64,000 nt of DNA, taken from positions 11,295 to 75,294 of the forward strand of contig MGVE01000009.1 of NCBI GenBank assembly GCA_001800315.1, in the 5' to 3' direction. Shown here piece by piece: positions 4,021 through 63,297 of the stretch. How positions within the stretch are numbered: position 1 is the stretch's first letter; every line of letters starts with the position of its first letter. The DNA comes from Elusimicrobia bacterium RIFOXYA2_FULL_47_53 (GTDB lineage Bacteria; Elusimicrobiota; Endomicrobiia; Endomicrobiales; XYA2-FULL-47-53). The position numbers and the translations under genes are program-made. The notes under the pieces were generated by a model. That model had not been told where the DNA came from. It saw only the letters and a list, made by a program, of their open reading frames with translations, and ran no database searches.

Positions 4021-4027
4021 GATAGTT

Positions 4028-8024: not shown

Positions 8025-9653
<1,629 letters not shown>

Positions 9654-9668
9654 TCACCTCAGGTAATT

Positions 9669-9956: not shown

Positions 9957-10043
9957 ACCGTTCACCTCCTGTTGGATTTTATAAACTGCTAAAAGTGCCG
10001 TATTGACGCCTCCATTTTCACGGAACAGCGGGCGCAAATTAAA

Positions 10044-10070
10044 TTAGCACTCGCTTTTAGCAAGTGCTAA
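10044..10070. promoter_or_regulatory. CIRCE operator (HrcA binding site)
   Basis: TTAGCACTC-GCTTTTAGC-AAGTGCTAA matches the CIRCE consensus TTAGCACTC-N9-GAGTGCTAA with one mismatch. It sits between the promoter and groES. Confidence 0.9.
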
Positions 10071-10099
10071 TTATAACAAAATCTATAAAATTTTGTCAA
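10070..10099 (-). promoter_or_regulatory. Sigma-70-type promoter of groES-groEL
   Basis: The minus strand reads TTGACA (10099-10094), N18, TATAAT (10075-10070), with TGT immediately upstream of the -10 (extended -10). It abuts CIRCE. Confidence 0.8.
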
Positions 10100-10200
10100 G
10101 CGGCTGAAAAAATATTTTTTCAGCGCCCCTGCCGCGAAAAATCCCGACGGAAAAATAAATATTTTAAAAAACTGCCCGCGTTTCGCGCAACCCGGCTATT

Positions 10201-10941: not shown

Positions 10942-11060
10942 ATTTTGCCTCCTGTATTTAATAAACATATTGAAAATTCAACACTATCTAAACAATGTGT
11001 CCCATGGACAATAATTATTAGCGGGAGATATCAACATCTTTATCCACAAAACTCACCACC

Positions 11061-11846
11061 CTAAGCTCTTCCTTTTTCCCAGATAAGCCTTATCCCCTCA
11101 AGAGTGAGTTCATTTACTATGTGTTTCACCTCTCTGATCTCGGGTATAATAAGCTGCGCAAGCCCTCCGGTTGCTATTACTTTTGGCTTACCCCCCATCT
11201 CGGCCGATATATTGCTCAAAAGCTCCTTAATCAGCCCTACATACCCATGGTATATGCCCGACTGAATGCTGGCGGCGGTGGTTTTGCCGATGGCTTTCAG
11301 GGGCTTTGCTATGCTGACAAGCGGAAGTTTTGCCGTCCTTTTTGCCAGCGATTCCGCGGATATCATCGGACCCGGAGCTATAGCTCCGCCCATATACTCG
11401 CCTTTTTTGTTTATGCAGTCAAAAGTTGTGGCTGTGCCAAAATCAATAATAATAAGGTTAGCGCCGAAAAACTCCTTGCCGGCCACCGCGTTGGCTATCC
11501 TGTCGGCGCCCACATCGGCCGGATTTGTATAAAGCACATTCATGGGAAGTTTTTCTTTACAGCAGACGAAGAATGCCTTCTGTTTTAAATATTCCCTGGA
11601 AACCTCGGCAAAGACGCTGTCCAGAACGGGCACGACGCTGGCAACCGCGACGGCCCTGATATCGGAAACATTTATGGCGGCGTAATGGAAAAAATCCAGA
11701 ATCTGGGTTCCGTATTCATCGGAGGTATTGGACTTAACCGTGGAAAGCCTCCAGATTTTTGACGGTCCCCGTTTGCTGCGGCCGCCGTCAAATTCAAAAA
11801 GACCGAGCGTAATATTAGTATTGCCTATATCTATGGCTAAAAACAT
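11061..11846 (-). CDS. coaX: Type III pantothenate kinase
   Basis: MFLAIDIGNTNITLG, DVGADRIANAV and IIIDFGTATT are CoaX motifs. Confidence 0.92.
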   Translation of the reverse strand: MFLAIDIGNTNITLGLFEFDGGRSKRGPSKIWRLSTVKSNTSDEYGTQILDFFHYAAINVSDIRAVAVASVVPVLDSVFAEVSREYLKQKAFFVCCKEKLPMNVLYTNPADVGADRIANAVAGKEFFGANLIIIDFGTATTFDCINKKGEYMGGAIAPGPMISAESLAKRTAKLPLVSIAKPLKAIGKTTAASIQSGIYHGYVGLIKELLSNISAEMGGKPKVIATGGLAQLIIPEIREVKHIVNELTLEGIRLIWEKGRA

Positions 11847-20409: not shown

Positions 20410-20624
20410 TCCTCAGCTGCTTCACGGGGTTTGACGGTTAAGACCTCACCGGATATGAAAGTCACCCTGAACGAAGTGAAGGGTCTCGTTTTTCATCCAA
20501 CGACGAGATTGCTTCTCTCCCTGCGGGAGATCGCAAGGACGGCGTTTGTGGATTCCGGACAGAACACTTCCGGAATGACGGCCTGTCCGAGATGGTGAGG
20601 CGCATCCTTAACGGAGGATTAGGA
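20410..20624. repeat. Stem-loop module mosaic, locus B
   Basis: Modules at 20461-20507 (GTCACCCTGAACGAAGTGAAGGGTCTCG...ACGACGAG), 20505-20540 (GAGATTGCTTCTCTCCCTGCGGGAGATCGCAAGGAC) and 20547-20580 (TGTGGATTCCGGACAGAACACTTCCGGAATGACG). Confidence 0.9.
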
Positions 20625-40409: not shown

Positions 40410-40761
40410 GTACCTGTAAAGTCACACTGAACGAAGTGAAGGGTCTCGTTTTTTATCCAACGACGAGATTCTTCTCTCCCTGCGGGAGATCAGAACAACG
40501 ACAACGACACAACGAGATTGCTTCGTTCCTCGCAATGACATCCTTTTGTGGATTCCGGACAGAACAATTCCGGAATGACAGCGTGTGGCGCTTTTGTGTC
40601 GTCATACCAGCGGACAGACTGTGTGGCAATGTCATCCTGCATGACAACAACTCAAAGCCCTCGTTAATGGCAGTTATGACACAGTCTGGGAAGCTGGTAT
40701 CCAGTGGTTTTTCTGGATCCCAGACTGGACATTTCCGGGATGACAGACTGGCTTTGTGATA
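40410..40761. repeat. Stem-loop module mosaic, locus D
   Basis: Modules at 40421-40467, 40465-40500 and 40547-40580. The arms ATACCAGC (40604-40611) and GCTGGTAT (40693-40700) enclose a 75-nt palindromic unit at 40614-40688. Confidence 0.9.
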
Positions 40762-45984: not shown

Positions 45985-46593
45985 GGCGGGGTTATTCTGA
46001 TTATAACTTTCTTTGAACGCGCAAAGATAGTAAGTAAAGAAACTTGCGACGCCTCACCATCTCGGACCGGCCGTCATTCCAGAAATGTTCTGTCTGGAAT
46101 CCAGAACAATGGCATTTTATTAATGACTCAAAGAAGTGGATCCCAGACTACTACCTCTGGGATGACGACACAAACTAGTCTGTCATCCCTACCCCCGATT
46201 GCGGCACTTGAGGGCAAACTCCAGCAGGGATCCAGAAAAACCTCTGGATACCAGCTTCTGCTGGTATGACGACACGAAGAAGTTCGCCGTTCACTTATAA
46301 CTTGAGTCAATTGAAAAAGTGTTTCAGGCCGTCTTTGCGAGGAGCGCAACGACGCGGCAATCTCGTCGTTCCCGACGGAAAAGCGAGATTGCTTCACCCT
46401 GCGGGCTCGCAATGACAGGGTCTAATTAAGGGTTTTTCAATTGACTCAACTTACAACTTACATCTTAAAACTTATTACTTAAAATATTCTGTCCGGAATC
46501 CACAAACGCCGTCATTGTGATCTTCCGCAGGGAGATAATATTCTCGTCGTTTGAGGAAAAACGAGACCCTTCACTTCGCTCAGGGTGACTTTA
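45985..46593. repeat. Stem-loop module mosaic, locus E (mostly inverted copies)
   Basis: 46071-46172 is the reverse complement of 5263-5365 (10 mismatches in ~101 nt by hand). 46228-46273, 46511-46551 and 46543-46589 are inverted copies of modules seen at loci B, D and F. Confidence 0.9.
46302..46449. mobile_element. 148-bp MITE-like unit bounded by 18-20-bp TIRs (TTGAGTCAATTGAAAAAG / GGGTTTTTCAATTGACTCAA)
   Basis: Left TIR 46302-46319, right TIR 46430-46449 (reverse complement, 1-2 mismatches). The interior carries hairpin modules and has no coding capacity. Confidence 0.6.
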
Positions 46594-47141: not shown

Positions 47142-47825
47142 CTAAATACCAAGAAGTTCCCCGACAGGAATAATTTCATATCCTCTTTTTTTGAGCTCTT
47201 CAATAATCAGCGGCAGCGCTTCAACAGTGCTCTCTCTTTTCACTCCTCCGTCATGCATAAGAAAAATCGCGCCGGGCTTGATGTTTTTAATATATTCCGC
47301 GGCCAGCTCGCTGCCGGTCATTTTCTTCCAGTCGCAGCCGAAACTCCAGTTTACAAGAACCATGTCATGCCTTCCGGCGACTTCCCGCACCCAGGGTTTC
47401 ACGAATCCATAGGGCATACGCATCAGCCGCGGCTTAAGGCCCGATATTTTTTCCAAAGCGGCATTGGCCCGGGCTATCTCCCCGGACAAAAGCTCTTCCT
47501 TGTCATCTTTTTTATACGAGTAGAAATTAGGATGCGTGTACGAGTGAGCGCCCACCTCGTGGCCGTCATTATAGACGCTTTTTACAATTTCGGACCTCGC
47601 GGCGGCCAGCTGGCCTTCCATAAAAAAAGTGGCTTTGATATTGCCGGCTTTTAGAATTTCCAAAATTTTGGGCGTAAATTTTCCCGGGCCATCATCAAAA
47701 GTCAGAGCTACGGCTTTTCTGTCTTTGTTCCCCTGGGCGAAAAACGGCGCCATTTTCTGTTCCGAGTTTACTTCCGCGGAAATAACCGCGGCTAAAACAA
47801 ACAATAAAAACACAGTTTTTTTCAT
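47142..47825 (-). CDS. Polysaccharide deacetylase (NodB homology domain), secreted
   Basis: The start is moved to the ATG at 47825 (MKKTVFLLFVLAAVISA), giving an ATGA overlap with the upstream permease. Motifs ALTFDDGP and GAHSYTHP. Confidence 0.88.
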   Translation of the reverse strand: MKKTVFLLFVLAAVISAEVNSEQKMAPFFAQGNKDRKAVALTFDDGPGKFTPKILEILKAGNIKATFFMEGQLAAARSEIVKSVYNDGHEVGAHSYTHPNFYSYKKDDKEELLSGEIARANAALEKISGLKPRLMRMPYGFVKPWVREVAGRHDMVLVNWSFGCDWKKMTGSELAAEYIKNIKPGAIFLMHDGGVKRESTVEALPLIIEELKKRGYEIIPVGELLGI

Positions 47826-49468
47826 CTTTGCCCCGATTCTAAAGATTTCAGGCCGAAGCGGAGCGGCAGGACTACCGCAATGAGATTGACCGCTAACAGC
47901 CCGCCGGCAACCCACGGAAGTCCGTACGAAAGATTCCGCGCGCTGTAATAATTCTGTATGGGTATCGCCCATAAGCCCATATTCACAAGAAGATAAAAAA
48001 GAGCGGAGACCATAAAAAGCAGGCCGCCCGGCGAAGACTCTATCTCGGAAACATTCGTGGAATCATATTTTGGGAAAATTGAACCCAGCCCCACCGCCAT
48101 GGAACACAGGCCAAGGCCCATAATTGTGACAGCAAGCGCGAATATGGCCGTAAGGGCCATGTCTGCTTTTAGAATGAAGCCGGAAAAAATTACGAGCGAG
48201 GAGCCGAAAATCACCATAGGGAGCGAACCATAAACAAGTTTTTCAAAAATAAATTTTGCCGGAGAAAACGGGAAAGAACGGACAAGCCAGAGGCTCTCGC
48301 CTTCAAGGCTGACCGAAGGAAATACGAACCTCAGAGCGACCGCCGAGAGCATGAAACCTATAAGGCCGAGGTTAAAATATGTCACGAGGTTTTGAATATA
48401 TAAGGTTTCAAGCGGAAGCTTGTAGAGGCTGAAAAGATAAACCACAATCAGCGCGCCCAGCAAAACCAGCTGAGACCATTGGCTGGCGTCCCTGAAGAAA
48501 ATCGTGAGATCTTTTCTGAAGAACGCCTGCAAAGGCATTCTTTTTACATAGGAGTTCGTTCGTCTTTGTCCGGATCCCCCAAAAATCTGAGCCGAAGCCC
48601 AGCCTTCAAAATAATATTTTCTGGCAAATAAAATAAGCGTGGCAAATAACAACGCCGCGCAGCCGTACAGAAGCGCCGAATTCAAAGCAACACCTTTAAG
48701 CGATCCCGCGGAGGAAGCAAGAATGCCCGCGGTAAGCCACCAGGAGGGAAGATAAGGCGCGGTCGGAGCATCCAGATAACGAAGGTATTGCGATACCAGC
48801 TCCAGAGCGTCGGGCCTTAAAAGCCGTTCCGGCTGAAGAAATCTCAGCAGAATATATATGCCAGTCACAAACATTACTCCCGAGAAAAGCAAAATATCCC
48901 TCGTCTTTCTTCTGGGAAGCAGTTTCATAAGTATCAGGCACAAAAAAATTCCCAGGCTCCCTGATATAACCAGGAACGGAACTGTCAGGACAAACCCGGA
49001 GACATAAAACCAAAACGAGAGATGCTTTACGGACCCGAGCGCCCCCACAAACGGGATTAGCAAAAGCAGTACCATCCAGGAAGAATAAAATATCGTTTCA
49101 AACGCTTTGTAAACAAATATCCCGCGTACCCCCAAAGGTTTTGTCATAAGCCACGGAAGGTCCCTGCTGGAAAATAGCGTATTAAACGAAGCTATAAGGC
49201 TTGAAATAATTACCATGGAAAACGATGTCAGAAAAACGAGCGCGAGGAGTTTATTGGTCAGCAGAGGGCCAATCAACTGAACAGAATTGAGCTCCTTTAA
49301 CAGGCGCCAGGCTCCGGCGTAAATACCCAGAATAAAAGCGCAGGCGGTTATCAGCATCAAGGCCGCCTTTATCTCCCCGCCGAGGCTCATGCGGACAATC
49401 TTGTTCCTGATGCTTTTTAATTTAATTGAAAGAATGATTTTCATATTTTGAGCAATTTTAAAAACCAA
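47822..49468 (-). CDS. Polytopic membrane protein, putative ABC exporter permease
   Basis: 548 aa with ~12 hydrophobic segments. Lies directly downstream of an ABC ATPase. Confidence 0.6.
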   Translation of the reverse strand: MVFKIAQNMKIILSIKLKSIRNKIVRMSLGGEIKAALMLITACAFILGIYAGAWRLLKELNSVQLIGPLLTNKLLALVFLTSFSMVIISSLIASFNTLFSSRDLPWLMTKPLGVRGIFVYKAFETIFYSSWMVLLLLIPFVGALGSVKHLSFWFYVSGFVLTVPFLVISGSLGIFLCLILMKLLPRRKTRDILLFSGVMFVTGIYILLRFLQPERLLRPDALELVSQYLRYLDAPTAPYLPSWWLTAGILASSAGSLKGVALNSALLYGCAALLFATLILFARKYYFEGWASAQIFGGSGQRRTNSYVKRMPLQAFFRKDLTIFFRDASQWSQLVLLGALIVVYLFSLYKLPLETLYIQNLVTYFNLGLIGFMLSAVALRFVFPSVSLEGESLWLVRSFPFSPAKFIFEKLVYGSLPMVIFGSSLVIFSGFILKADMALTAIFALAVTIMGLGLCSMAVGLGSIFPKYDSTNVSEIESSPGGLLFMVSALFYLLVNMGLWAIPIQNYYSARNLSYGLPWVAGGLLAVNLIAVVLPLRFGLKSLESGQR

Positions 49469-49532
49469 TTTGAGTCCGCTGGGAAACCTCTTTCGGGCCG
49501 TTTTTGCGGAGAGTTAGAACAGCGCCGGCCGG

Positions 49533-50282
49533 CTACAGCAACTCAAGCAGTTCGCTGTACCGGCTTCCGCCCGTGAGATGCAGGAACAGCTCTTCAAGGG
49601 TGCCTTCCTGCCGCGCCCTTTTTTTGAGTTCCTCAACGGTGCCAAGAGCTATTATTCTTCCATTTTGAATAATTCCTATCCTGTGGGCAAGCCTCTCGGC
49701 GATTTCAAGCACATGCGTGCACATAAACACAGCTACACCTTTGGCTGAAAGGCGCGTAATAATTTCTTTGACCATTTTCGCGCTCTTGGGATCAAGGCCC
49801 ACCAGCGGCTCGTCAAGAAAAATAACCTTGGGCTGGTGAAGCAAAACGCTCGCGAGAACTAGTTTCTGTTTCATGCCGTGCGAGTAGGCCTCTATCATCT
49901 CTCCGGCCCAGGGTGAAAGTTCAAACATGGACAGCAGTTCAGGGATCCGCTGCTTTTGTTCGTCTATTCCCACCTTATATATGTCTCCGACAAGCCTCAT
50001 GAACTCAAAACCCGTAAGATGAGGGTAAACATAAGGCTGATCCGAAACAAAACCGGTTATTGACTTTGCTTCAATCGGGTTTTTTCGCAAATCAAAATTA
50101 CCGATAACCGCCGACCCGGCCGTCGGCTGAAGTATGCCGGTAAACAGCTTGACCGTAGTGGTCTTTCCGGCTCCGTTAGGGCCGAGAAAAGCGAATATCT
50201 CGCCGGGCGGTATCTCAATGTTTAAATTGTCCACCGCCGTAAGGCTTCCGAATTTCCTGGTAAGGTTAACGGCTTTAATCAT
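49533..50282 (-). CDS. ABC transporter ATP-binding protein (ABC-2/DrrA-like)
   Basis: GPNGAGKTT, a signature-like YSHGMKQKL, and FLDEP. Confidence 0.9.
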   Translation of the reverse strand: MIKAVNLTRKFGSLTAVDNLNIEIPPGEIFAFLGPNGAGKTTTVKLFTGILQPTAGSAVIGNFDLRKNPIEAKSITGFVSDQPYVYPHLTGFEFMRLVGDIYKVGIDEQKQRIPELLSMFELSPWAGEMIEAYSHGMKQKLVLASVLLHQPKVIFLDEPLVGLDPKSAKMVKEIITRLSAKGVAVFMCTHVLEIAERLAHRIGIIQNGRIIALGTVEELKKRARQEGTLEELFLHLTGGSRYSELLELL

Positions 50283-50866
50283 GATAAAAAGGCCTTCGCG
50301 AATGAAGTCAGCACCATAGCGGAGGTGAGAGGCATCCAGAAATTATCGTTTAGCGGCCACGGCATGACCTCTATGGATGTCGCCACGAGCGCTCCCCAGA
50401 ACGCAAGCGGCCAGTCAAGGAAGAACATTCCGATCCCGAAACAAACCGCGAAACAGGCTATACTGCCTTCAATGGTTTTTTCGTTGAGTATTTTATTTTT
50501 GCCGTGCCGGCGCCCGACAAGCGCCGCCACCGCGTCGCCGAAAGCCAGGTAAAGCAGGCTTGCGGTTACTATATTTTTGTCCTGGAAAATTAGCATGGTA
50601 AAAAACGAACCGGAGAAAGTCCAAAGCAGGCCGCTGATCTGCGTCTCTTCCTCCTTTCTATGCACGCCTCCGAGGACATTGAGTATCCATTTGTTCAGCC
50701 TTGAGTTATTGAGGCGGAGCGCCTCCGTGACCGCTATCGCGAAAATCAAAATTCCCATAGCCTGCAGAACCAGAATCCTGGGAAGGAACCAATAGGCCGC
50801 GATATACAATAAGATAAGAAAATGGAACAGTTTTCTTTTTACTTCATCCTGGCTAAAAAATCCCAT
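50279..50866 (-). CDS. CTP_transf_1-superfamily membrane protein (dolichol/phytol-kinase-like), tentative
   Basis: About 195 aa with 5-6 TM helices. GDAVAALVGRRHGK resembles the polyprenol kinase / CDS family. First plausible ATG at 50866. Confidence 0.4.
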   Translation of the reverse strand: MGFFSQDEVKRKLFHFLILLYIAAYWFLPRILVLQAMGILIFAIAVTEALRLNNSRLNKWILNVLGGVHRKEEETQISGLLWTFSGSFFTMLIFQDKNIVTASLLYLAFGDAVAALVGRRHGKNKILNEKTIEGSIACFAVCFGIGMFFLDWPLAFWGALVATSIEVMPWPLNDNFWMPLTSAMVLTSFAKAFLS

Positions 50867-51549
50867 AGCAAAACCGCCTTTGCATAAAGCATACTGCAAA
50901 TCAACAGAGTGGTGTTGTAACTGCCGGCAAAAAAGCTTTTGAGAGCAACCGAACCCGGAAAAACTAACTTTAAAAGAACCGGAAGCATAATGAAGTTAAC
51001 AGTTGCTATAAAAATTGAGGAAAAAAATATTCCGTAGAGCTTCAGGTCGCTTTGTCCCTGCTTTAGGGCAAAATGAGTCAGGCTGAAATGAAACGCCAGG
51101 CTAAAACCCATGGCGAAAATAAAATACGGCTGGTAATCCCCCAGTTTCCAGAATTTGGCTCCGACAGCGTACACTATCATCAGGACAACGCTGTAGAACG
51201 GAACAAAATAGGGAGCCAGCGAAATCAAAACATTGGTTTTTGAAAGAATTACGCTTCCCCCGGAAGATGAAACCTTAAAACTCTTGAGCTTCGCTCCGCT
51301 GATAATTCCGGCCAGCGCGTGAGTAAGCTCATGGGCGAAAACATAAAGCCTCACGGGCTTGGGGAAAAATGCCTGGAAAATAAAATAGGAGCCCAGCCCG
51401 CCCCAGAAGGGCAGGGTGCTGTAATCGGCCTTTCCGGCGAAATCCGCCACCAACCCGGTAAAACGCCAGACCAGAGCGGCCGCGACCGGCAGCATAAATA
51501 CAGCTATGATAAACCGCGCTAAAGCAGGCGCTCTTTTGCTGAATTTCAT
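50839..51549 (-). CDS. Membrane zincin-like protein with HExxH (DUF3267/M50-like), tentative
   Basis: 236 aa with several TM helices and FAHELTHALAG (HExxH). Confidence 0.45.
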   Translation of the reverse strand: MKFSKRAPALARFIIAVFMLPVAAALVWRFTGLVADFAGKADYSTLPFWGGLGSYFIFQAFFPKPVRLYVFAHELTHALAGIISGAKLKSFKVSSSGGSVILSKTNVLISLAPYFVPFYSVVLMIVYAVGAKFWKLGDYQPYFIFAMGFSLAFHFSLTHFALKQGQSDLKLYGIFFSSIFIATVNFIMLPVLLKLVFPGSVALKSFFAGSYNTTLLICSMLYAKAVLLWDFLARMK

Positions 51550-54482: not shown

Positions 54483-54519
54483 AAAAAGTCCATGCGGGAA
54501 CGAAGCAACAGTTCTTTTC

Positions 54520-54810
54520 ACGCATGGGACTCGTCATACCAGCGGAAGCCGGTAACCAGTGGTTTTTCTGGATCCCTGTGTGTGCTCACATCTCGCACCC
54601 GTTGCAAGCTTGTGCGGCTTATTCGCCGCACTGCAGCTACAGGGATGACAAACTTTACGGAACGCGCAGCAAGCTGCGCAACTACAAAACCAACTAACCG
54701 CGAGCCTGCTTCTCTCCCTGCGGGAGATCGCAATGACAGGGCCTTATTAGGGGTTTTTCAATTGACTCAACCGATAACTAATAACTTATATCTTATAACT
54801 TCAAACTTAT
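54520..54810. repeat. Stem-loop module mosaic, locus F
   Basis: Modules at 54533-54576, 54653-54684, 54705-54736, TIR-type module at 54750-54770, and an AT-rich ATAACTTATA tract at 54771-54815 that runs into the stop of the next gene. Confidence 0.88.
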
Positions 54811-56187
54811 TCAATACTTATAAGAGCTTCCCCCGATAAATTCCCTTACCAGAGAATTTTTAGGTATCGCGGAGAAATCTTCCAGCCCCAGCACTCCCTC
54901 CAGCAGGCCGTAAACGCGTTTTGCCCTTATATAGGCGTCAAGTTTTTTGGGGTCTTTTTCGTATTTACCTATTATCCCGGGAAAACCGTCAAAAAGATAT
55001 TTCTTGTACACGGGCAGTTCGTAAGGCATGGCTCCGTTAAAAACATAGTCGGCTTTGTTTATAAACGGCACGATGTATTTTTTCTCGCTTCTCCTAACAT
55101 AATGCCAGTGTCCGACCGTGCGCTCCGGATCGTATGAACGGTGCAGGGAATCGCGCACCATGCGCCGCAGCATTCTTAAGTCGGCCCAGCGCACAAACTC
55201 GTTATTGGAATCTCTTATCTGGCAAAGCGCCTCAATATAAAATTTAAATTTCATCTCATGAGGCACGCTTGAAGTCATTTCCGGGAAAAGGCCGTGCAGG
55301 CTGTCTATAAGAAGTATCTCGTTTTCTTTAAGCTTGAACTCGCGGGCATCCAGAGTCCGCCTGCCGGTTTTAAAATTATATTCGGGCATCAGGACTTTTT
55401 TGCCCTGGAGGAGAGCAAAGAGGTGCTCGTTGACAAGGCCCAGGTCCAACGCCTGCGGGCTTTCAAAATCATAATCTCCGTACTCGTCTTTTGGATGCTG
55501 GTCCAGGTTCTTGAAATAATTATCCAGGTTTAAGGCGACAAACTTCAGGCCTTTTTCACGCAGTTTTTCTCCGATTTTGGCGGTAGTCGTGGTTTTGCCC
55601 GAAGAAGAGGGTCCGGCCACTATAACCATCCTGATGCCATGCCTGCCGCTTATTATTCTATCCGCGACTTTACCGATCTCGTCATGGTAGGATTTTTCGG
55701 AATCTTTCACAAGTTTGGCGAATTTACCGTCAATTATGGTTTTGTTGAGTTTTTCAACGCTATCGCAGCCGTGGTCCACATTCCAGGTAAAAACCTTCCA
55801 CAAAACCTTGTAGGGCACATTGTCCTCAGCAGCGATTCTGGAAGACTTTTCTTCGCGGAGTTTCGCGTGCTCGGCTCTGTAAAGTATATAAGCCTTAGCG
55901 GTTTTATAATGGCCGTTTTCAACCAGCACTTTCTCAATAAGGTCCTGTATCTCCTCAACACTGGGAACGGAACCGGAGGGATAAGCCCTGTTAATCAGCG
56001 CTATAACCTGTTTGGTAAGTTTTTCCGCAAGTTCTCTGTTAGATCCGCCCACATCAACCGCGGCGCGGAAAATAGAGTCGGATATTTTGTGCGCGTCAAA
56101 GGCAACGAGGCGGCCGTCGCGTTTTATAACGCTTTCAATTTTGAGCCTGCTGATTTCCTTTTCGGGAAAAAGATATTCTAAGTTCAT
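54811..56187 (-). CDS. ATP-cone domain fused to a uridine-kinase/phosphoribulokinase-type P-loop kinase
   Basis: ATP-cone (VIKRDGRLVAFDAHKISDSI...YILYRAEH), then Walker A VAGPSSSGKTTT and a PRK/UDK-like fold. The ATG at 56187 is preferred over the TTG at 56220. Confidence 0.75.
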   Translation of the reverse strand: MNLEYLFPEKEISRLKIESVIKRDGRLVAFDAHKISDSIFRAAVDVGGSNRELAEKLTKQVIALINRAYPSGSVPSVEEIQDLIEKVLVENGHYKTAKAYILYRAEHAKLREEKSSRIAAEDNVPYKVLWKVFTWNVDHGCDSVEKLNKTIIDGKFAKLVKDSEKSYHDEIGKVADRIISGRHGIRMVIVAGPSSSGKTTTTAKIGEKLREKGLKFVALNLDNYFKNLDQHPKDEYGDYDFESPQALDLGLVNEHLFALLQGKKVLMPEYNFKTGRRTLDAREFKLKENEILLIDSLHGLFPEMTSSVPHEMKFKFYIEALCQIRDSNNEFVRWADLRMLRRMVRDSLHRSYDPERTVGHWHYVRRSEKKYIVPFINKADYVFNGAMPYELPVYKKYLFDGFPGIIGKYEKDPKKLDAYIRAKRVYGLLEGVLGLEDFSAIPKNSLVREFIGGSSYKY

Positions 56188-56197
56188 TATAGGCGGG

Positions 56198-56671
56198 TTA
56201 TTCCAGCATGTAATCTTCAAACGGTATATTTTTACTCTTTAATTCCTGTTTCCATAATTCGCGGGCTTTAGGCATTTTCTCGCGCGACAGCTTCACCCAC
56301 TTTGATTCCGGCGGAGAAAAAAGCTCAACCGCGGTCTGGTACCAAACATACGCGTATTTTATGGAGCTGTCGGACATTTTCTGCTTGAGGTCAAATTCCA
56401 TTATCTCCAGCTCGCGGGCATAATCTTCTTTTGAAAGCTTGCCCGACGCGAGTTTTTTGCTTAGCTTCTCTTTCTTGGCTTCAAATTCCGCCTTAAGCGC
56501 TGTTTCTTTCGCTTTTGGGTTTTCATGCCAGCCCCAGAACTTTTCCCCTTCCAGGTATGCCGAACGGGCGCGCAAAACCACATCCGTGTAAATCATCGCG
56601 TACACCGCGGCAACGCAGAACAGCGCGGCCGCCGAAATCCTGAACCATTTTTTTTGAAGCAACTCTTTCAT
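56198..56671 (-). CDS. N-terminally membrane-anchored protein, uncharacterised
   Basis: GGAGAG then ATG at 56671 (MKELLQKKWFRISAAALFCVAAVYAMIY), followed by a Lys/Glu-rich helical region. Confidence 0.5.
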   Translation of the reverse strand: MKELLQKKWFRISAAALFCVAAVYAMIYTDVVLRARSAYLEGEKFWGWHENPKAKETALKAEFEAKKEKLSKKLASGKLSKEDYARELEIMEFDLKQKMSDSSIKYAYVWYQTAVELFSPPESKWVKLSREKMPKARELWKQELKSKNIPFEDYMLE

Positions 56672-56694
56672 TTTACTCTCCAGCGGCCAAAGGC

Positions 56695-57765
56695 CTATTT
56701 TACCGACAGCTTCCACAAAAGGAAAGTGTCTATTATTGACCAGACCAGCGAAAGGAAAAATATAATATCCAGCAGGATAAAGAAATTGTTTGATAAAAAC
56801 TCCCGCGCCGAGTTATAGGACTGCTCTATCCGCTCAATTTTTACCTCAACGGTTTTGTGAAGCTCTTCGGTGTTAAAAACCTTGTTCACATTCTGGAATA
56901 CCGTGCGCAGGTGCCAGTCCGATTCCACCTTGGGTATGCTGGTAATGACATTGTACAGGGAATCAACGATGCTTATTTTATCCTTGTCAAAACCCAGCGC
57001 CTCTTCGGAAAATGTCTGGTAGGCCTGCAGAATCTGCCAGAATTTATAATACGGGGGAAGGTTTTCCAGAAGCTGCTGGCTTACATCCATCTCATGGTCA
57101 AGAATAAAGTTGTAGGAGCGCATGGACCAGTACTGGGCATAGGCGAGCTTTATCATTTCAAGGATGGACGAAGCCTCCCTTGAGTAGACCAAAGCGCCGA
57201 ACCGTTTAATAAGTATTATTTCTTTTTCGTAGTAGCCGTAATTAACGAGTTTTTCTTTCTCCAGAACATAGTTGGAAAGAGAGTCGTAATCCGGCTCGCC
57301 GGCCAGAAAGCCGAACAGGGCCTTGTGATTTTTCCAGATATATGTCTCGGCATCCTCCGTCACCTGCTCTTTGAGCTCAACAATGGGGAATATCTCGCCT
57401 TCGGTCAGGCGTTTTTCGTAACTGTGTATGGAATATTTCAGGGCCCGCTGAATCAGGCCGTCAACCAGCGACTGACAATATGTAATAATCCCGGTTTTTC
57501 CGGCTCGTATTTTTTCAATATTGCACGAGAGAGAGGCAAGATATTTTAAATCCTCTTCCACCTCAAAAGATATCTGTATTATACCGACGCCGAACTTGTA
57601 AACCTGGGTGGAAAACTCGGCCTGGGGAAAAATCCTGCCTTCAAAGGATATTGTGCCCATCTTGCGGGCTGAAATCTCTTTAAAAAATTCAGTCGTGTCC
57701 TTGCCGGTAAAATCCAGCTCAAGGCCCATATCAAACGGGAAAAGAAGGCAGACCTTTGAACTCAT
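56695..57765 (-). CDS. Uncharacterised protein with a single C-terminal TM helix (possibly DUF155/RMD1- or CorA-N-like)
   Basis: 356 aa. The only hydrophobic segment is at the C-terminus (FFILLDIIFFLSLVWSIIDTFLLW). ATGA overlap with the upstream gene. Confidence 0.4.
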   Translation of the reverse strand: MSSKVCLLFPFDMGLELDFTGKDTTEFFKEISARKMGTISFEGRIFPQAEFSTQVYKFGVGIIQISFEVEEDLKYLASLSCNIEKIRAGKTGIITYCQSLVDGLIQRALKYSIHSYEKRLTEGEIFPIVELKEQVTEDAETYIWKNHKALFGFLAGEPDYDSLSNYVLEKEKLVNYGYYEKEIILIKRFGALVYSREASSILEMIKLAYAQYWSMRSYNFILDHEMDVSQQLLENLPPYYKFWQILQAYQTFSEEALGFDKDKISIVDSLYNVITSIPKVESDWHLRTVFQNVNKVFNTEELHKTVEVKIERIEQSYNSAREFLSNNFFILLDIIFFLSLVWSIIDTFLLWKLSVK

Positions 57766-59003
57766 TTGCTTTCCTCCGGAGCCCTGCTCTTAAAGGAAAT
57801 TGTAAAGATTTTCTCCCTGCCTTTTGCCTCAAAGGTAACCGTGCCTCCCAGAAGCTCCGCCAGGTGGCGGGACTGCGACAGTATCATATTCCTATAACCG
57901 CTCCTGGTATCCCAGACGGGGAGGAACAGGCTCTCAATCTCTTCAGGCTTTATCGCGGGCGCGTTATCTTTAAAGGAACACGATAAAACATCGCCCTGCC
58001 TGGCCACAGTTATATCAAGTTTAGTCGCGGGCCCTGAAACTTCCAGGTAATTATCAACCAGGCATGAAAGGGCCTCATAGGCTATTTTTGGATCCAGCGA
58101 GAGTTCGGCAATGCTTTTTGTTTCCGGCCAGATTATCCTTGTTTTTTTTCTGCTCTGCTGTTCCGCAAAACGGGCCTTGAGCTTCTCAAAAACAGCGGAG
58201 AGGTCAACTTTCTCGTATTTTGGTTCCACTTCTTTCAGCATCCCCAGGTAGAGTTCAAGCACTTTGGTGATTTCCCTGCTGGTGGTGCAGGCGTTTTCAA
58301 TATCGGCCTTGTTTTCAATGTTTTCGTGCCCGGCAACGCGGGATTTCTCTATGCGCTCAAGACAGAGCTGGGCGTTGACGCTTATTATACTCGCCATGGC
58401 ATGGACCCGCGAGATCACATTCTTGTATTCCCTGACAAACTCCGTTCTGCCCTCTTTTTTTCCTCTCGCGACAGACTGCTCCAGCTCAAGGCGTTTTTTC
58501 TCAAGCAGAGCTATCTGCTCGGAGTGCTTTTTATCAAACTCGGAAAGTTTATCCGTAATACTCTTAATGTCGGATTCGTGCCGCTTTCTCTCTTTTTCTC
58601 TTGCCATAAGCGACGATTCAAAATCCTGCCTTAATTTTTCTTTTTCAACGCTCAGATCGTCAACTTTACGCAAAGCCGAGTCAAGGCCTTGTTTCACCGC
58701 CAGAAGCTGGTCGCGCAGAAACTTGTTCTCGGCGGCTTTCTCAAGAAGCTTCGCCTCCACTCCGACCGGCCCGACGCCAGAAATGCTCCTGAGAGTCTCG
58801 TTTTCATCCCGCAGAGACTCCGACTTATTGTTTTCCCTCTCGAGGGCTTCTCTCAGCGCGGAATCGTACTCCTCAAGCGCCGATATAAAAGCCTTAACGG
58901 CATCCTCTCCAAGCGCGGGAGTGGCCCTCTTAATCAAATAATTTTTAAGGCCTTCAAATTCTTTTTTCATCTTATCCAGGCTGTTCATAGTATTGGTTAT
59001 CAT
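57762..59003 (-). CDS. Soluble coiled-coil histidine-kinase-like protein (HATPase_c), no TM and no receiver
   Basis: 413 aa. Long coiled-coil N-half, candidate H-box ISRVHAMASII, N-box-like LVDNYLEV, G-box-like FKDNAPAI and LLGGTVTFE. ATGA overlaps on both sides. Confidence 0.6.
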   Translation of the reverse strand: MITNTMNSLDKMKKEFEGLKNYLIKRATPALGEDAVKAFISALEEYDSALREALERENNKSESLRDENETLRSISGVGPVGVEAKLLEKAAENKFLRDQLLAVKQGLDSALRKVDDLSVEKEKLRQDFESSLMAREKERKRHESDIKSITDKLSEFDKKHSEQIALLEKKRLELEQSVARGKKEGRTEFVREYKNVISRVHAMASIISVNAQLCLERIEKSRVAGHENIENKADIENACTTSREITKVLELYLGMLKEVEPKYEKVDLSAVFEKLKARFAEQQSRKKTRIIWPETKSIAELSLDPKIAYEALSCLVDNYLEVSGPATKLDITVARQGDVLSCSFKDNAPAIKPEEIESLFLPVWDTRSGYRNMILSQSRHLAELLGGTVTFEAKGREKIFTISFKSRAPEESK

Positions 59004-61036
59004 ATTTTCCCCGTCAGGCTGTTCCCCACCGATGAAATATAGGAGTTTATTCTTTTGAAATTGTCTATGAGGTCTAAGTGTACGCTTGAGGTTTCAAGGC
59101 TCTCTGCCAGCCCCGAGTGCAGCCTGCTTATGTGTTTTTTTCTGAGCGATGATTCGTATACATTTATATTCGCCTTGGTTTCGGCGACAAGCTTGGCAAG
59201 CTCAAGGTTGTTGTCTTTTAGCGCGGTTATGGCTTTTTCAAGATTATCCGTAATCTTCGCGTGTATAGCCACGATGTCCTGCCAGCCCTCGTCGGAGAAC
59301 CAGAGGTTATTTTCAAGCTTTTTTCGCGCGAGCGCGAGCACATTTTTATCAATTATATCGCCGATGGTCTCAATGTCGGCGGTGATATACAGAAGCATTA
59401 TCTCCTGAGCGGACTGCTCTTCGTTCATCAGCCCGCCCTGGCCAATTTTTGTAAGATATTTTACAATGGCGTTCCTGAGCATATCAACCCTGAAATCCAT
59501 AAGAGAAACCGTTTCGCGGAGCTTCAGGTCCCGCTCGTCAAACACCTTAAGGGACTCCCTGAGCATCACAAGGACAATCTCGGCTTCCCTGATAACTTCC
59601 TTTCTCGCCTGTTCAAGCGCCAGAGACGGCGTCTCAAGCAGTATATCGTCAAGATATTTGGGGCCGAAGGGTTTTTCCTCCTCTCCCGAGGGAAAGGCTT
59701 TCAGCAAAAGGTCCCTGGCCGCGGGCAGAAAAGGCAGGAAAATAAGGGCGTTAATTACCGCGCTTAAAGTGTGGGCCATGGCTATCTGGCGGGCCACATC
59801 AAAGGTCGCGAAAAATGTGGAAGTAAACCATTTCACGAAATAGACCCAGGCCGGCTCACCGTGAAAGGTTACGAACGAAAGGAATGGATAAATCAGCAGC
59901 ACTCCCGCGCTCTGATGCAAAACATGCCACAGCGCGGCCCGTTTGCCTTCGCGGCCGCGGCCTATGGAGGCGAGCGCCGCGGTAAAACAGGTTCCTATCT
60001 GGGCGCCGAGATTTATAGGTATGGCCTGGCGCAGATCAATGGCTCCCGCGAGCGCCAGGGCTATGACTATTACGGCAGTCGCTCCGCTGGAGTGAATAAG
60101 CATGGTAAATACCAGCCCGATGAAAATTCCAAACAACGGATTGGATACGCTCTCCATGGCCTGCATAAACGGAGCATATTCTCTCAGAGGAGCGAGCATA
60201 TCGGCTATCACCCGCATGCTAAGGAAAATTATCCCGAGGCCTAAAATAACATGGCCTGCCTGAATCCATTTTTTTGTCTTTGAAAAAAATGAAATATAGA
60301 AACCAAGGCCGGCTATCAGCACGGCGTAGTCTGTCAGCTTGAAAGCCACCAGCTGGGCGGTTATGGTAGAGCCTATTTCAGCGCCCATGGTCACGGCCAT
60401 GGTCTGATAAAATGTCAGAAGGCCGGCGCTGACCAGGCTCACTTCCAGAAGAATCGTGGCGGTGCTTGACTGGTTAAACATAGTTACAAGCAGGCCCGTC
60501 CCCATTCCCCTTAAGGGATTTTTCGTCAGATATATCAGCAGTTCCCTGAGCTTAGTGCCGGCTATTTTTGTAAGGGCGTCGTTTATATAGAACATCCCAA
60601 AAAGGAAAAGCCCGAGCCCGCCCACAAGTTCAAGAAAAAGAATCATGAGCCAATTTTTGTTTCGGGAGGAAGCCTTGAAGATGACGGGGCTGGGAAAAGC
60701 CTCTTTCGTGGAAGCCCTGATGAGTATGTCTCCGTAAAACCCCCGCGCAATATTGAGCCTGGTTGCGGCGAGGCCGAGCGAATCGGTTATGGCGACGGGA
60801 CTGGAAAAACTGAAGTTGTCGGCATGCTTATCATCAATAACCGAAAACACCACCGGCACCCCGGCAAGCGGCGCGCCCTTTTCCGAGACAATCTTAACGC
60901 AAAAATCCTCCGGCAGGGGATACCCGGCAATTCCTATCTGATTGTTCCCGGAAACAACCTCTATTTTCTGGGAGGCATCGGCGGAAAACGCGAACAGCAG
61001 CGCGCAAAGCAGGGATAGAAATATTTTTATTTTCAT
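59000..61036 (-). CDS. Na/Pi cotransporter (NaPi-II family) with C-terminal PhoU-like repeats and an N-terminal Ig-like periplasmic domain
   Basis: 678 aa. Signal peptide plus a Big-like segment (IEVVSGNNQIG...VVFSV), NaPi repeats (LFLFGMFYINDALTKIAG...), and PhoU-type ITADIETIGDIIDKN. Confidence 0.82.
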   Translation of the reverse strand: MKIKIFLSLLCALLFAFSADASQKIEVVSGNNQIGIAGYPLPEDFCVKIVSEKGAPLAGVPVVFSVIDDKHADNFSFSSPVAITDSLGLAATRLNIARGFYGDILIRASTKEAFPSPVIFKASSRNKNWLMILFLELVGGLGLFLFGMFYINDALTKIAGTKLRELLIYLTKNPLRGMGTGLLVTMFNQSSTATILLEVSLVSAGLLTFYQTMAVTMGAEIGSTITAQLVAFKLTDYAVLIAGLGFYISFFSKTKKWIQAGHVILGLGIIFLSMRVIADMLAPLREYAPFMQAMESVSNPLFGIFIGLVFTMLIHSSGATAVIVIALALAGAIDLRQAIPINLGAQIGTCFTAALASIGRGREGKRAALWHVLHQSAGVLLIYPFLSFVTFHGEPAWVYFVKWFTSTFFATFDVARQIAMAHTLSAVINALIFLPFLPAARDLLLKAFPSGEEEKPFGPKYLDDILLETPSLALEQARKEVIREAEIVLVMLRESLKVFDERDLKLRETVSLMDFRVDMLRNAIVKYLTKIGQGGLMNEEQSAQEIMLLYITADIETIGDIIDKNVLALARKKLENNLWFSDEGWQDIVAIHAKITDNLEKAITALKDNNLELAKLVAETKANINVYESSLRKKHISRLHSGLAESLETSSVHLDLIDNFKRINSYISSVGNSLTGKI

Positions 61037-61422
61037 TTTATTTTAAAAGGCTTCGGCAGAAACGAGCTGAGGCGGCTTATTCTGATTTCACCGTTTCCGG
61101 AGGCGGAAATAACCGGAATATCGCCTTTCGCGAACTCCTGCAGCACCTGGAGGCACGCGCCGCAGGGGACAGGTTCGTGTTTTCCGGAAATAAAAAGCGC
61201 GACGGCTTCTATTTTACGGTTTCCCGACGAGACAGCCGAGGCTACGGCGTTTCGTTCGGCGCAGGCCGTCAAGCCGTAAGAGGCGTTTTCCACATTTGCG
61301 GCTGAAAAGATTTTGCCGCCGGCATAAACCGCCGCTCCGACCTTAATCCCGGAATAGGGGCTGTAAGAATTTTTTGCCGCGTTTTTCGCGGCCGAAAGCA
61401 ATTTCGCTCTGTTAACAGGCAT
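61033..61422 (-). CDS. cdd: Cytidine deaminase
   Basis: 129 aa. CAERNAV and PCGACLQVL zinc-binding motifs. Confidence 0.92.
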   Translation of the reverse strand: MPVNRAKLLSAAKNAAKNSYSPYSGIKVGAAVYAGGKIFSAANVENASYGLTACAERNAVASAVSSGNRKIEAVALFISGKHEPVPCGACLQVLQEFAKGDIPVISASGNGEIRISRLSSFLPKPFKIK

Positions 61423-61450
61423 TATGCCTCCATAGCAAAGGTGTTGCCGC

Positions 61451-62362
61451 TTATTTCAGCACTTCAAAATGAGTCAGTTTCTTAAACTGGTGAAATCTAT
61501 CGGTTATCTTCTCCCAGTCAAGCGAGCGCAGCTTGTTGAGGCTGAAATCCTCAACATTGAAAGAAGCCATCACGCTTCCGAATACAATGGCCCTTCTTAA
61601 ATCGTGATCCTCCAGGCTCCTGCATTTCGCGAGATAGCCCATAAAACCGCCGGCAAACGAGTCGCCCGCTCCGGTGGGGTCAAACACCTTTTCAAGAGGA
61701 TAGGCGGGCGCGGAAAAAATATGGTTACGGCCGACGAAAAGCGCGCCGTACTCGCCCCTTTTAATCACCAGAGCCTTCGGGCCCCAGGAAAATATTTTCT
61801 TTGAGGCTTTTACCAGATTAGATTCCCCGGCGAGCTCTCTGACCTCGGCCTCATTTATAACAAGAATATCAACTTTTTTCAGCGTCTTAATAAGCTGCGG
61901 CTTTTTTGAAGATATCCAGTAATTCATGGTGTCGCAGGCTACAAGTTTAGGATTTTTTACCTGTTTTAAAACCTCCAGCTGAAGCTCCGGGTCTATATTG
62001 CCAAGGAACACATATTCGCTTTTCTTGTACTGCTCAGGTATATTCGGTGAGAAATGAGCGAAAACATTAAGCTGGGTATCAAGGGTTTCGGCCTGGTTTA
62101 AATCATAGGTGTACTGCCCCTTCCAGCGGAAAGTTTTCCCCTTCACCTTTTGAAGCCCGCTTAAGTCAATGTCGTGTTTTTTCAGCACATCCAGATATTT
62201 TTTCGGGAAATCCTCTCCTATGACCGCCACCAGCTTGACGGGGCTGAAGTAGGACGCGGAAACCGAAAAATATGTCGCCGAACCGCCCAAAGCGTTATCA
62301 ATTTTTCCAAAAGGCGTTTTGACCGAATCCATCGCCACCGAACCGACAACAAGAATGCTCAT
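61451..62362 (-). CDS. PfkB-family carbohydrate/nucleoside kinase
   Basis: 303 aa. DPTGAGDSFAGGF and the N-terminal GSVAMD motif. Confidence 0.85.
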   Translation of the reverse strand: MSILVVGSVAMDSVKTPFGKIDNALGGSATYFSVSASYFSPVKLVAVIGEDFPKKYLDVLKKHDIDLSGLQKVKGKTFRWKGQYTYDLNQAETLDTQLNVFAHFSPNIPEQYKKSEYVFLGNIDPELQLEVLKQVKNPKLVACDTMNYWISSKKPQLIKTLKKVDILVINEAEVRELAGESNLVKASKKIFSWGPKALVIKRGEYGALFVGRNHIFSAPAYPLEKVFDPTGAGDSFAGGFMGYLAKCRSLEDHDLRRAIVFGSVMASFNVEDFSLNKLRSLDWEKITDRFHQFKKLTHFEVLK

Positions 62363-62391
62363 CTAACTCTCCCTGTATATGATTTTGCTGC

Positions 62392-62422
62392 TTATACCAT
62401 GTTTATGGTATATTTATACCAT
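62392..62422. promoter_or_regulatory. Candidate operator: TTATACCAT direct repeat with a central inverted ATGGTATA
   Basis: TTATACCAT (62392-62400), ATGGTAT (62405-62411), TTATACCAT (62414-62422), 30-60 nt upstream of the pfkB ATG. Confidence 0.45.
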
Positions 62423-62531
62423 AACACATATTATTTTGAAGTTTCACAGCCCCGAACAGAATAGATGTAAATACATTCGCGCATCGGCAAACTTCGCCTA
62501 TTAACCCATTTATCCAGGATGAGCAATCGCG

Positions 62532-62717
62532 CTAAAAGCCTTTTTCCTTTAATTTAAACCATGCCTTCCTGCTCTTTTCCGGCATAGTATTAAAAAGAAA
62601 ATCATTAAGTTTCTGCATTTCAGCTAACCGTTGCTCCGGAGTCAACGATAAACAGCGTTTAATATATTCCTTATCAACGAGTTGTCCGCCTCTATTATTT
62701 GCCTTTTTTGCTGGCAT
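62532..62717 (-). CDS. Small helical protein, partner of the nucleotidyltransferase (uncharacterised)
   Basis: About 61 aa from the ATG at 62717 (MPAKKANNRGG...TPEQRLAEMQKLNDFL...). Overlaps the NTase stop by 23 nt. Confidence 0.45.
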   Translation of the reverse strand: MPAKKANNRGGQLVDKEYIKRCLSLTPEQRLAEMQKLNDFLFNTMPEKSRKAWFKLKEKGF

Positions 62718-63195
62718 TGATAATCTCCTTAAGCGCCTCAACATCCGAGAGGTCACGGACACGGCCGGCATGAACCTTTAACCTGATAAGGTCTTCTATT
62801 GAAACAACGGGAACTTTTACACCCTGGTTCATCAGAGTAACTCGCTTTTCATATGCTTTATTGAAATCAATGAACTCTTCTATCATTATATCAATGCCTT
62901 CCATTTCGTTCTTGGGATTATACACGGAAAACACAATCATCCCTTTCTCTTTAATCCATTTGCCTCGTTTACTTTTATCGGCAAAATCATGGATATTAAC
63001 CGGAACTCTGGGCTTAAAACCAAGCTCCTGAAACAGTTGCATTAATTTGCCGACATTCTCATCGCTCATACGGAGCATAATATCAAGATCTGATGTCGCG
63101 CGAACGAAACCATATAAATTGACCGCTATCCCGCCGGCAACGAGGTATTTTATATCTCTTTTGTTAAGTTCGCTAAATATTCTTTTAAAGTCCAT
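62695..63195 (-). CDS. Pol-beta-superfamily nucleotidyltransferase (DUF2204/DUF6036/AbiEii-like minimal NTase)
   Basis: From the ATG at 63195: MDFKRIFSELNKRDIKYLVAGGIAVNLYGFVRATSDLDIML, which gives a GG...G..R.T.D.D NTase motif. The sampled line gives ~33% GC. Confidence 0.6.
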   Translation of the reverse strand: MDFKRIFSELNKRDIKYLVAGGIAVNLYGFVRATSDLDIMLRMSDENVGKLMQLFQELGFKPRVPVNIHDFADKSKRGKWIKEKGMIVFSVYNPKNEMEGIDIMIEEFIDFNKAYEKRVTLMNQGVKVPVVSIEDLIRLKVHAGRVRDLSDVEALKEIINASKKGK

Positions 63196-63297
63196 ATACC
63201 CGACCTGTTTCGTGACTACATACTTTATTAACAGCTCGCCAGTTTTCCACCTCCGAGGAATCCATTCGGCTGCCTCGGAGGTGTTCGGCGGCAAACT

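Follow-up and report, generated by a model that had tools for sequence, protein, structure and literature searches.

The seven genes on the minus strand at positions 54811–62362 of a 64,000-nucleotide stretch of the genome of Elusimicrobia bacterium RIFOXYA2_FULL_47_53 (contig MGVE01000009.1; we refer to the whole stretch as the window) encode, in order, a PfkB-family kinase (pfkB), a cytidine deaminase (cdd), a Na/Pi-cotransporter-family protein with PhoU domains (NaPi), a histidine-kinase-like (HK-like) protein, two membrane proteins termed p356 and p157, and a kinase with an ATP-cone (the ATP-cone kinase, or UK). We favor, at a probability of about 0.6, the view that this string is a single transcription unit and a clade-specific mosaic of three older blocks, and not a dedicated seven-part machine. 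The coordinates of the genes and of the features around them are collected in Table 1.

Junctions and conservation of the gene order

All seven open reading frames (ORFs) are intact, begin with ATG, and contain no internal stops, and direct reading of the sequence confirmed the coordinates and junctions given in a first-pass annotation of this DNA. Its domain assignments were also confirmed, by scans against Pfam and NCBIfam. A gap of 28 nt separates pfkB from cdd. Three ATGA overlaps follow, at cdd/NaPi (61033–61036), NaPi/HK-like (59000–59003), and HK-like/p356 (57762–57765), and then a 23 nt gap containing GGAGAG between p356 and p157 and a 10 nt gap between p157 and the ATP-cone kinase. 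The starts chosen for p157 (ATG at 56671, 157 aa) and for the kinase (ATG at 56187, 458 aa) fit the lengths of their homologues; the mechanically longest ORFs (172 and 469 aa, respectively) are over-extended. Shine-Dalgarno (SD)-like motifs precede pfkB (GGGAGAG), cdd, HK-like, p356, and p157. No such motif was seen in the sequence upstream of the NaPi and ATP-cone kinase starts, and so these two genes probably rely on coupling to the gene before them. A 4 bp overlap is possible in 4 of the 42 same-strand neighbor pairs of the window, and because three of the four lie within the string, the run of ATGA junctions is locally unusual. A scan of the string for terminators and promoters gave nothing above the shuffled background, and the gaps on the operon strand carry no terminator-like site. 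Scans of 53–64 kb for Rfam families (at a permissive threshold) and for tRNAs gave no match, and we conclude that the string contains no riboswitch. Judged from their spacing, the seven genes form one compact, co-directional unit that is probably co-transcribed, and to this extent the compact operon first proposed is supported.

We then compared the string with 57 genome loci found through p356, 65 metagenome loci found through p157, and several exact-match contexts, and located in them the proteins of the window as well as clusters built de novo (loci are numbered from L001 upward; clusters are given as C or K with a number). Outside the source genome, the order of the string is confined to one clade of Endomicrobiales type, in which p356 is 64–78% identical (L001, L002, L003, L004, L005, L031, L050, L058, L073, and L080). 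The order is thus conserved beyond the source genome, but the middle genes are found elsewhere mostly in unrelated contexts. Within the clade, only pfkB, NaPi, and p356 are never missing from a locus that extends over their positions (the upstream ends of L003 and L073 are cut off). HK-like, p157, and the ATP-cone kinase are all missing from L031 and from L005, which also lacks cdd, and L050 has neither cdd nor the kinase and retains HK-like as a 166 aa coiled-coil stub. Other loci contain additional genes. In L002 the order is pfkB-cdd-NaPi-C71-C4-HK-C5-C27-p356-p157-UK, with four extra genes in the region of the NaPi/HK-like junction; a metallo-β-lactamase (MBL) gene follows NaPi in L058, L080, and L005; and a gene for a ~600 aa zinc-ribbon membrane protein (C36 in L058 and L080) precedes the kinase in L001, L004, L058, and L080.

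The three overlaps differ in how far they are conserved. The cdd/NaPi overlap is present in five of seven clade loci (in the relatives L001, L004, L058, and L080), the HK-like/p356 overlap in two of six (the window and L001), and the NaPi/HK-like overlap in the source genome only; in L001 this last junction is a gap of 36 nt. As the overlaps are mostly not conserved, they do not mark a conserved stoichiometric complex, and the first-pass proposal of obligatory co-translation with fixed stoichiometry is not supported. ATGA overlaps can arise quickly after deletions, and so they are in any case poor evidence for a stable complex. On the sequences compared, only cdd→NaPi combines tight coupling with conservation.

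We propose that the mosaic was assembled from three blocks. Block A would be a salvage operon that runs from genes for PNP, PYNP, RecJ, and MTAP into those for the PfkB kinase, cdd, and, in translational coupling with cdd, a Na/Pi-PhoU transporter resembling YjbB. Block B would be the tail of a module comprising C4, HK-like, C5, a PilZ protein, and p356, of which the source genome would have retained HK-like and p356 alone, and block C would consist of p157, the head of a receiver-p157-ABC string, plus the ATP-cone kinase. Deletions between the blocks would have created the compact ATGA junctions, which would provide local translational coupling (NaPi and the kinase lack an SD motif of their own) without reflecting a conserved complex. 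The gene content, junctions, homology, and synteny patterns on which this scheme draws are observations; the direction of the evolutionary steps is what we infer from them.

p356, the HK-like protein, and p157

The first-pass annotation had suggested that the three middle proteins could form a complex. The distribution of p356 and p157 speaks against this suggestion: in most of 47 loci, p356 adjoins none of the six other genes of the string, and p157 usually pairs with a receiver and an ABC string. In four distant taxa (among archaea, Planctomycetota, and Verrucomicrobiota), p356 is solitary among unrelated neighbors. It lies directly upstream of p157 in Endomicrobiales-type loci only, and its sole link that reaches beyond the clade is that with HK-like, which is there part of a different, five-gene module. 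We also considered whether genes of nucleotide metabolism are enriched near p356 outside the clade and rejected the idea, as about four independent cases (cdd in L028; NDK and purD in L062; MTAP in L042/L047) among ~240 neighbors represent the chance level. In L028 (8208–12992), from a divergent lineage with a 48% identical p356, the genes upstream of p356 encode an EF-hand protein and a cytidine deaminase of the dimer type (285 aa), and an MBL plus helix-hairpin-helix (ComEC/ComEA-like) protein is encoded downstream; with its loose spacing of 250–290 nt, this pattern is compatible with chance.

p356 has 164 close homologues, all of ~356 aa, from Elusimicrobiota and cultured Methylacidiphilaceae, and an alignment of 22 sequences contains 63 invariant columns. 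Cultured Methylacidiphilum and Methylacidimicrobium (Verrucomicrobiota) carry homologues of the same length with 44–46% identity (L035, L037, L041, L045, L051, and L054). No other group outside Elusimicrobia belongs to the core family, and this distribution suggests either lateral transfer or an ancient link between Elusimicrobia and the Planctomycetota-Verrucomicrobiota-Chlamydiota (PVC) bacteria. Neither p356 nor p157 matched the local Pfam and NCBIfam collections (the PF27233 model, MJ0711_N, lies outside the Pfam copy scanned); a precomputed PF27233 label is marked "weak" on the window p356 and is unmarked on its relatives. An exhaustive profile search revealed a tail of full-length distant relatives, and p356 aligned with PF27233-labeled archaeal and PVC proteins over 337 columns (hhalign, 99.8%, E = 5.5e-29). 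This family, named after M. jannaschii MJ0711, has more than 1000 members (in Bathyarchaeia, Thermoplasmatota, Phycisphaerae, Pedosphaera, and Fontisphaera), and p356 shares with it a length of ~360 aa, a C-terminal transmembrane (TM) helix, and profile homology over the full length. The Elusimicrobia/Methylacidiphilaceae subfamily differs from the wider family in its far stronger conservation (48–78% identity) and in invariant motifs of its own (PFDxGLELDF, NxGYY, RFGA, and DWHL). We found no paper on the MJ0711 family in the literature, and DUF155 (RMND1/Sif2-Sif3/Mrx10, PF02582) was matched by 1 of 30 distant MJ0711-like relatives (E = 0.0017) and by no member of the core family.

The AlphaFold2 (AF2) model of p356 (pLDDT 86, pTM 0.81) comprises an N-terminal α/β domain, very long helices, and a single C-terminal TM helix. 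In its overall architecture the model resembles CorA/Mrs2, which provided the top Foldseek matches in the PDB, but these matches are weak (E 0.01–0.1, TM-score 0.16–0.24), p356 has one TM helix and not two, and neither the GMN motif nor any CorA/Mrs2 sequence similarity is present. We regard this as resemblance and not membership. Profiles of p356 and of the distant family had zero matches among PDB sequences. N327, D346, and T347 in the TM helix are invariant, and distant relatives have a near-invariant Glu in theirs. Such conserved polar and acidic residues would fit an oligomeric pore.

In the HK-like protein, HATPase_c (40.6 bits versus a threshold of 26.4) was the sole Pfam domain found, and the family profile matches ZraS/NtrB-type kinases over the dimerization/histidine phosphotransfer (DHp) and catalytic (CA) regions (E = 1e-31). 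There was no HisKA match and no conserved His in an eight-member alignment, in which the H-box position is occupied by K/E or another residue. The ATP-binding boxes of the window copy read DNAPA (G1) and GYRNMIL (G2), compared with DNGxG and GHxGLGL in orthologues; both boxes are intact in the orthologues of L001, L002, L013, L015, L018, L020, and L046. These substitutions suggest that the window copy has lost ATP binding. Of the initial description as a soluble HK-like ATPase, the HATPase_c domain therefore stands, and histidine kinase or ATPase activity is not supported, given the absence of an H-box His and the degenerate ATP-lid motifs. The protein resembles pseudo-histidine kinases of the DivL type in having DHp-like helices and a CA domain of NtrB/ZraS type without an H-box His, and it differs from them in being soluble, in its long N-terminal coiled coil, in the family motif ENxxLRSxxG, and, in the source genome, in its degenerate G1 and G2 boxes. 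Decay is also seen in relatives: the copies in L058 and L004 lack the second G1 glycine, in addition to the stub in L050 and the two losses described above. The window copy is 24–29% identical to its clade orthologues, compared with 64–78% for p356, and the simplest reading is that it is a decaying remnant of an Elusimicrobia module. As p356 is kept at this level while HK-like decays, p356 does not need HK-like.

The module in question was found upstream of p356 in divergent Elusimicrobia, where C4, HK-like, C5, and C27 form a recurrent and tightly coupled group. C4 is an outer-membrane-barrel-like protein with a coiled coil and LysM; C5 combines a receiver-like domain (D or E at the acceptor site) with a TM helix and β-propeller-like repeats; C27 is a PilZ protein in which four of five members have RxxxR and D/NxSxxG, the canonical motifs for cyclic di-GMP (c-di-GMP); and C71, a secreted protein of ~500 aa, heads the module ahead of C4. 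In at least 15 of 47 p356 loci, C4, HK, C5, or C27 lies within five genes upstream of p356, often with −4 or −8 overlaps (for example L002, 4239–11068; L015, 5685–11068; L018, ~6200–11080; L046, ~200–7260), and in L002 the whole set sits inside the salvage string. We searched the window for C4, C5, C27, C71, and the receiver K1 and found none of them. The C4/HK-like/C5/PilZ/p356 module, which lies mostly outside the window, appears to be undescribed.

p157 is represented by 487 homologues of 52–71% identity across Elusimicrobiota. Its AF2 model (pLDDT 92.7) consists of a TM helix and a helical bundle, and a fold search returned just generic helical bundles (E ~1 or worse). A stand-alone response-regulator receiver is encoded directly upstream of p157 in ~14 of 24 informative loci, often with overlapping starts (for example in L086, 6453–11257, and in L095, L117, L120, and L129–L134), and a K2-K5-K3-K6 string lies downstream of p157 in seven loci. 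The window genes from 51549 to 47822 correspond to this string, with 37–60% identity in tblastn to representatives in L086, L095, L099, L117, L120, and L121. They are located 3–8 kb downstream of p157 on the same strand, and the intervening DNA contains the ATP-cone kinase gene, opposite-strand PPIase-DJ1 and GGDEF/HD-GYP genes, and a repeat-bearing spacer of 328 nt. The receiver-p157 pairing also appears to be undescribed and is mostly found outside the window. GGDEF proteins, one of them fused to a PD-(D/E)XK/Cas4-like nuclease and GAF domains, are encoded between p157 and the K2-K6 string in L099 and L117.

Salvage genes, phosphate transporter, and flanks

The PfkB protein scored 96.7 bits against PF00294 (gathering score 25.8), and its best match in the PDB was 3kd6 ("Carbohydrate kinase, PfkB family," E = 1.8e-109), followed by MJ0406 (2c49); we take both to be nucleoside kinases. 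The NCBIfam equivalogs for ribokinase, nucleoside kinase, and ribose-1-phosphate kinase gave at most 65 bits against cut-offs of 300–450, and the substrate is therefore not assigned. The likeness to 3kd6 and MJ0406, together with the gene context, makes a nucleoside kinase probable. The cdd product exceeded the equivalog cut-off of TIGR01354, the homotetrameric class (126.3 versus 113.65 bits), and its translation contains the zinc-binding motifs CAE and PCxxC (TACAERNAV and PVPCGACLQ); it is a housekeeping-type tetrameric cytidine deaminase. In the last gene, residues 19–108 form an ATP-cone (PF03477, 82.2 bits versus a gathering score of 25.8) that matches ribonucleotide reductase ATP-cones in the PDB. 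The kinase domain belongs to PF00485 at the family level (75.9 bits versus 22) and is nearest in the PDB to Thermus uridine kinase (E = 1.5e-12), but its 82–83 bits against the udk equivalogs TIGR00235 and NF004018 lie under their cut-offs of 220 and 180. A literature search on ATP-cones combined with uridine kinase found nothing relevant.

By exact sequence, the window was matched to the Elusimicrobia metagenome-assembled genome GCA_001800455.1 and to several JGI contigs. Genes for a PNP-family phosphorylase, a pyrimidine-nucleoside phosphorylase (PYNP), RecJ, and MTAP lie upstream of the string on the same strand. The nucleoside and phosphate theme that the first-pass annotation saw in the recognizable genes is therefore real and larger than it had been drawn, and the match of the PfkB protein to 3kd6 strengthens it further. 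The unit resembles the salvage operons of E. coli (deoCABD, with the cdd and udk regulons) and B. subtilis (dra-nupC-pdp) in that genes for phosphorylases, cdd, and kinases of the nucleoside or uridine type are clustered and share one direction. Unlike them, it has no nucleoside permease and has instead a Na/Pi-PhoU transporter coupled to cdd; an ATP-cone is fused to its kinase; three genes with no relation to salvage lie within it; and no CytR/DeoR-type regulator was seen. We considered a nucleotide-depletion defense system and rejected it: PADLOC gave no meaningful match for any of the seven proteins (the only match, of the kinase to mad8, was at the P-loop level, with E = 3e-4), and the cytidine deaminase is of the housekeeping type.

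The NaPi protein matches PF02690 (189.7 bits), PF01895 in two stretches (59 bits), and NF037997 (195 bits versus a cut-off of 50), and it scores 191 bits against TIGR00704, slightly under the cut-off of 210. Its N-terminus (60640–61036 in the window) adds ~130 aa that comprise a signal peptide and an Ig-like extracytoplasmic domain (MG4-like match to residues 44–113, E = 5e-4), an unusual feature in the Na/Pi-PhoU family. The NCBI annotation of the source genome gives a 548 aa protein that omits this domain. The long form of 678 aa is kept in L001, L002, L058, and L080, and the cdd/NaPi overlap is therefore real. E. coli YjbB-type proteins likewise have two PhoU domains behind a Na_Pi_cotrans core and differ in having neither the signal peptide nor the Ig-like domain at the N-terminus. 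YjbB has reportedly been proposed to be a phosphate exporter. Assignment to the Na/Pi family, as in the "phosphate importer" of the first-pass annotation, is upheld, and import is not, as a family match does not establish the direction of transport. Plausibly, the transporter balances the phosphate that is used by the phosphorylases and bound by the kinases.

In relatives, just 15–140 nt separate MTAP from pfkB. In the window, positions 62532–63294 between MTAP and pfkB are occupied by a gene for a DUF6036/AbiEii-like nucleotidyltransferase (199 aa) and an overlapping small ORF (61–79 aa). The pair is present here in the source genome only and looks like a toxin-antitoxin-type insertion that has split a longer salvage operon. 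A perfect palindrome, ATGGTATA-AA-TATACCAT (62405–62422), with a third half-site, CATGGTATAAG, nearby (62390–62422 overall), lies 30–60 nt upstream of the pfkB start. It matches once in the window against an expectation of 0.08, and the site holds two TGGTATAAA/G extended −10-like motifs. A role as a shared operator was rejected, as the palindrome is absent upstream of pfkB in relatives and unique to the source genome; the site may serve as a promoter or operator that arose with the neighboring insertion.

At the other end of the string, the spacer between the convergent kinase and PPIase-DJ1 genes measures 328 nt, compared with 4–10 nt in relatives. It folds better than shuffled sequences (z = −3.1), has no Rfam match, and ends with a hairpin, GTCCCATGCG...CGCATGGAC, and U7; this hairpin is likely a bidirectional terminator that serves both the string and the convergent PPIase gene. 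Segments 80–92% identical to the spacer recur at the intergenic positions 5921–6033, 46225–46484, 40471–40721, and 20504–20540, and the spacer thus belongs to a dispersed repeat family of the MITE/REP type. The ~600 aa protein that is encoded between p157 and the ATP-cone kinase in relatives (L001, 11573–13384; L058, 8621–10438; L080) consists of tandem DnaJ-type CxxCxGxG zinc-finger repeats followed by C-terminal TM helices and is absent from the window.

Table 1. Genes and other features of the string and its surroundings (window positions)
Feature	Positions	Strand	Basis or remark
PfkB-family kinase, probable nucleoside kinase, 303 aa	61451..62362	-	PF00294; first gene of string
Cytidine deaminase, tetrameric type, 129 aa	61033..61422	-	TIGR01354
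Na/Pi-cotransporter-family membrane protein, signal peptide + Ig-like + 2 PhoU, 678 aa	59000..61036	-	PF02690, PF01895, NF037997
Soluble coiled-coil pseudo-histidine kinase, degenerate HATPase, 413 aa	57762..59003	-	HATPase_c, no HisKA
p356, tail-anchored membrane protein	56695..57765	-	PF27233 (MJ0711_N)
p157, N-terminally anchored all-helical protein	56198..56671	-	Homologues and AF2 model
ATP-cone + PRK/uridine-kinase-family kinase, 458 aa	54811..56187	-	PF03477, PF00485; last gene of string
K2-K5-K3-K6 (M50B-like membrane, 206 aa membrane, ABC ATPase, ABC_tran_2)	47822..51549	-	tblastn, Pfam
Structured 3' region, 328 nt, hairpin + U-run, dispersed repeat	54483..54810	-	Fold z = -3.1
Promoter region of string with palindrome	62363..62531	-	Sequence reading

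Alternative explanations and significance

Several observations weigh against a mosaic. The linkage of pfkB, NaPi, and p356 holds in all clade loci that span them, even where p356 is just ~64% identical, and this could reflect selection for a functional link specific to the clade. Co-transcription was judged from spacing only, and deletion in the source genome, as opposed to insertion in L002, was argued from the distribution of the genes and not from a phylogeny. The sample of loci came from pattern scans limited to 80 loci each and is not unbiased; ORF calling in these loci simply took the longest ORFs, so that errors are possible in small genes and in exact gap lengths; and several contigs from metagenome-assembled genomes are short or frameshifted (L004). 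The same linkage would be expected if all seven products formed one nucleotide- and phosphate-economy system, in which HK-like, p356, and p157 would be a membrane-associated sensor or regulator of the transporter and the kinases, with a stoichiometry fixed by coupling. Salvage genes do flank the uncharacterized ones on both sides, and the three consecutive ATGA overlaps compare with one other among the 42 same-strand pairs. We nevertheless regard such a system as improbable, because conservation is limited to one of the three overlaps, HK-like, p157, cdd, and UK can each be missing from a sister genome, p356 and p157 occur in unrelated contexts in most loci, and the HK-like copy has degenerate ATP-binding motifs.

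A smaller unit is also conceivable, in which HK-like and p356 are a two-protein signaling pair, the GHKL ATPase acting on or switching the tail-anchored, CorA-like protein without the PilZ, receiver-propeller, and outer-membrane partners, and in which the position within a salvage operon is incidental. Eleven loci (p356 49–78% identical) have an orthologue of HK-like no more than three genes upstream of p356, often with overlapping junctions, and the two genes overlap by ATGA in the window and in L001; most p356 loci, however, and all of the distant MJ0711-like loci examined have no HATPase neighbor, and p356 persists where HK-like is truncated, lost, or degenerate, so that we think this pair a doubtful explanation. 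It is also possible, but unlikely in our view, that p356 is a membrane-embedded output or sensor subunit of an undescribed, envelope-spanning, c-di-GMP-linked module (composed of the outer-membrane barrel/LysM protein, a His-less GHKL ATPase, the receiver/TM/β-propeller protein, PilZ, and the tail-anchored CorA-like protein), and that a reduced HK-like/p356 version was captured by the Endomicrobiales-type salvage/phosphate operon, which would tie salvage or phosphate flux to the signal. Very improbable, finally, is a role for p356 as a CorA-type ion channel or cytosolic cation sensor whose link to NaPi coordinates divalent-cation and phosphate homeostasis. The top rank of CorA/Mrs2 in Foldseek, the conserved acidic and polar TM residues, and the NaPi-p356 linkage within the clade would agree with it, but the fold match is weak (E at least 0.01, TM-score no higher than 0.24), p356 lacks the GMN motif and a second TM helix, and NaPi is not a neighbor of p356 outside the clade.

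The operon itself carries little weight, as a salvage cluster with a phosphate transporter and uncharacterized passengers. The arrangement is undescribed (no published description was found in a literature search, in line with the first-pass annotation), yet it amounts to an ordinary salvage operon in a variant form, and p356 is an added member of a cataloged family. Three targets are of greater interest. The first is MJ0711_N, with its more than 1000 members in archaea, PVC bacteria, and Elusimicrobia, a confident structural model, and charged residues conserved in a single membrane helix. The second is p157, a very strongly conserved signature protein of Elusimicrobia that is paired with a stand-alone receiver, and the third is the five-gene module, which brings together a pseudo-kinase, a pseudo-receiver, PilZ, and an outer-membrane LysM protein. 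Because cultured Methylacidiphilum and Fontisphaera strains carry relatives of p356, the family is open to experiments.

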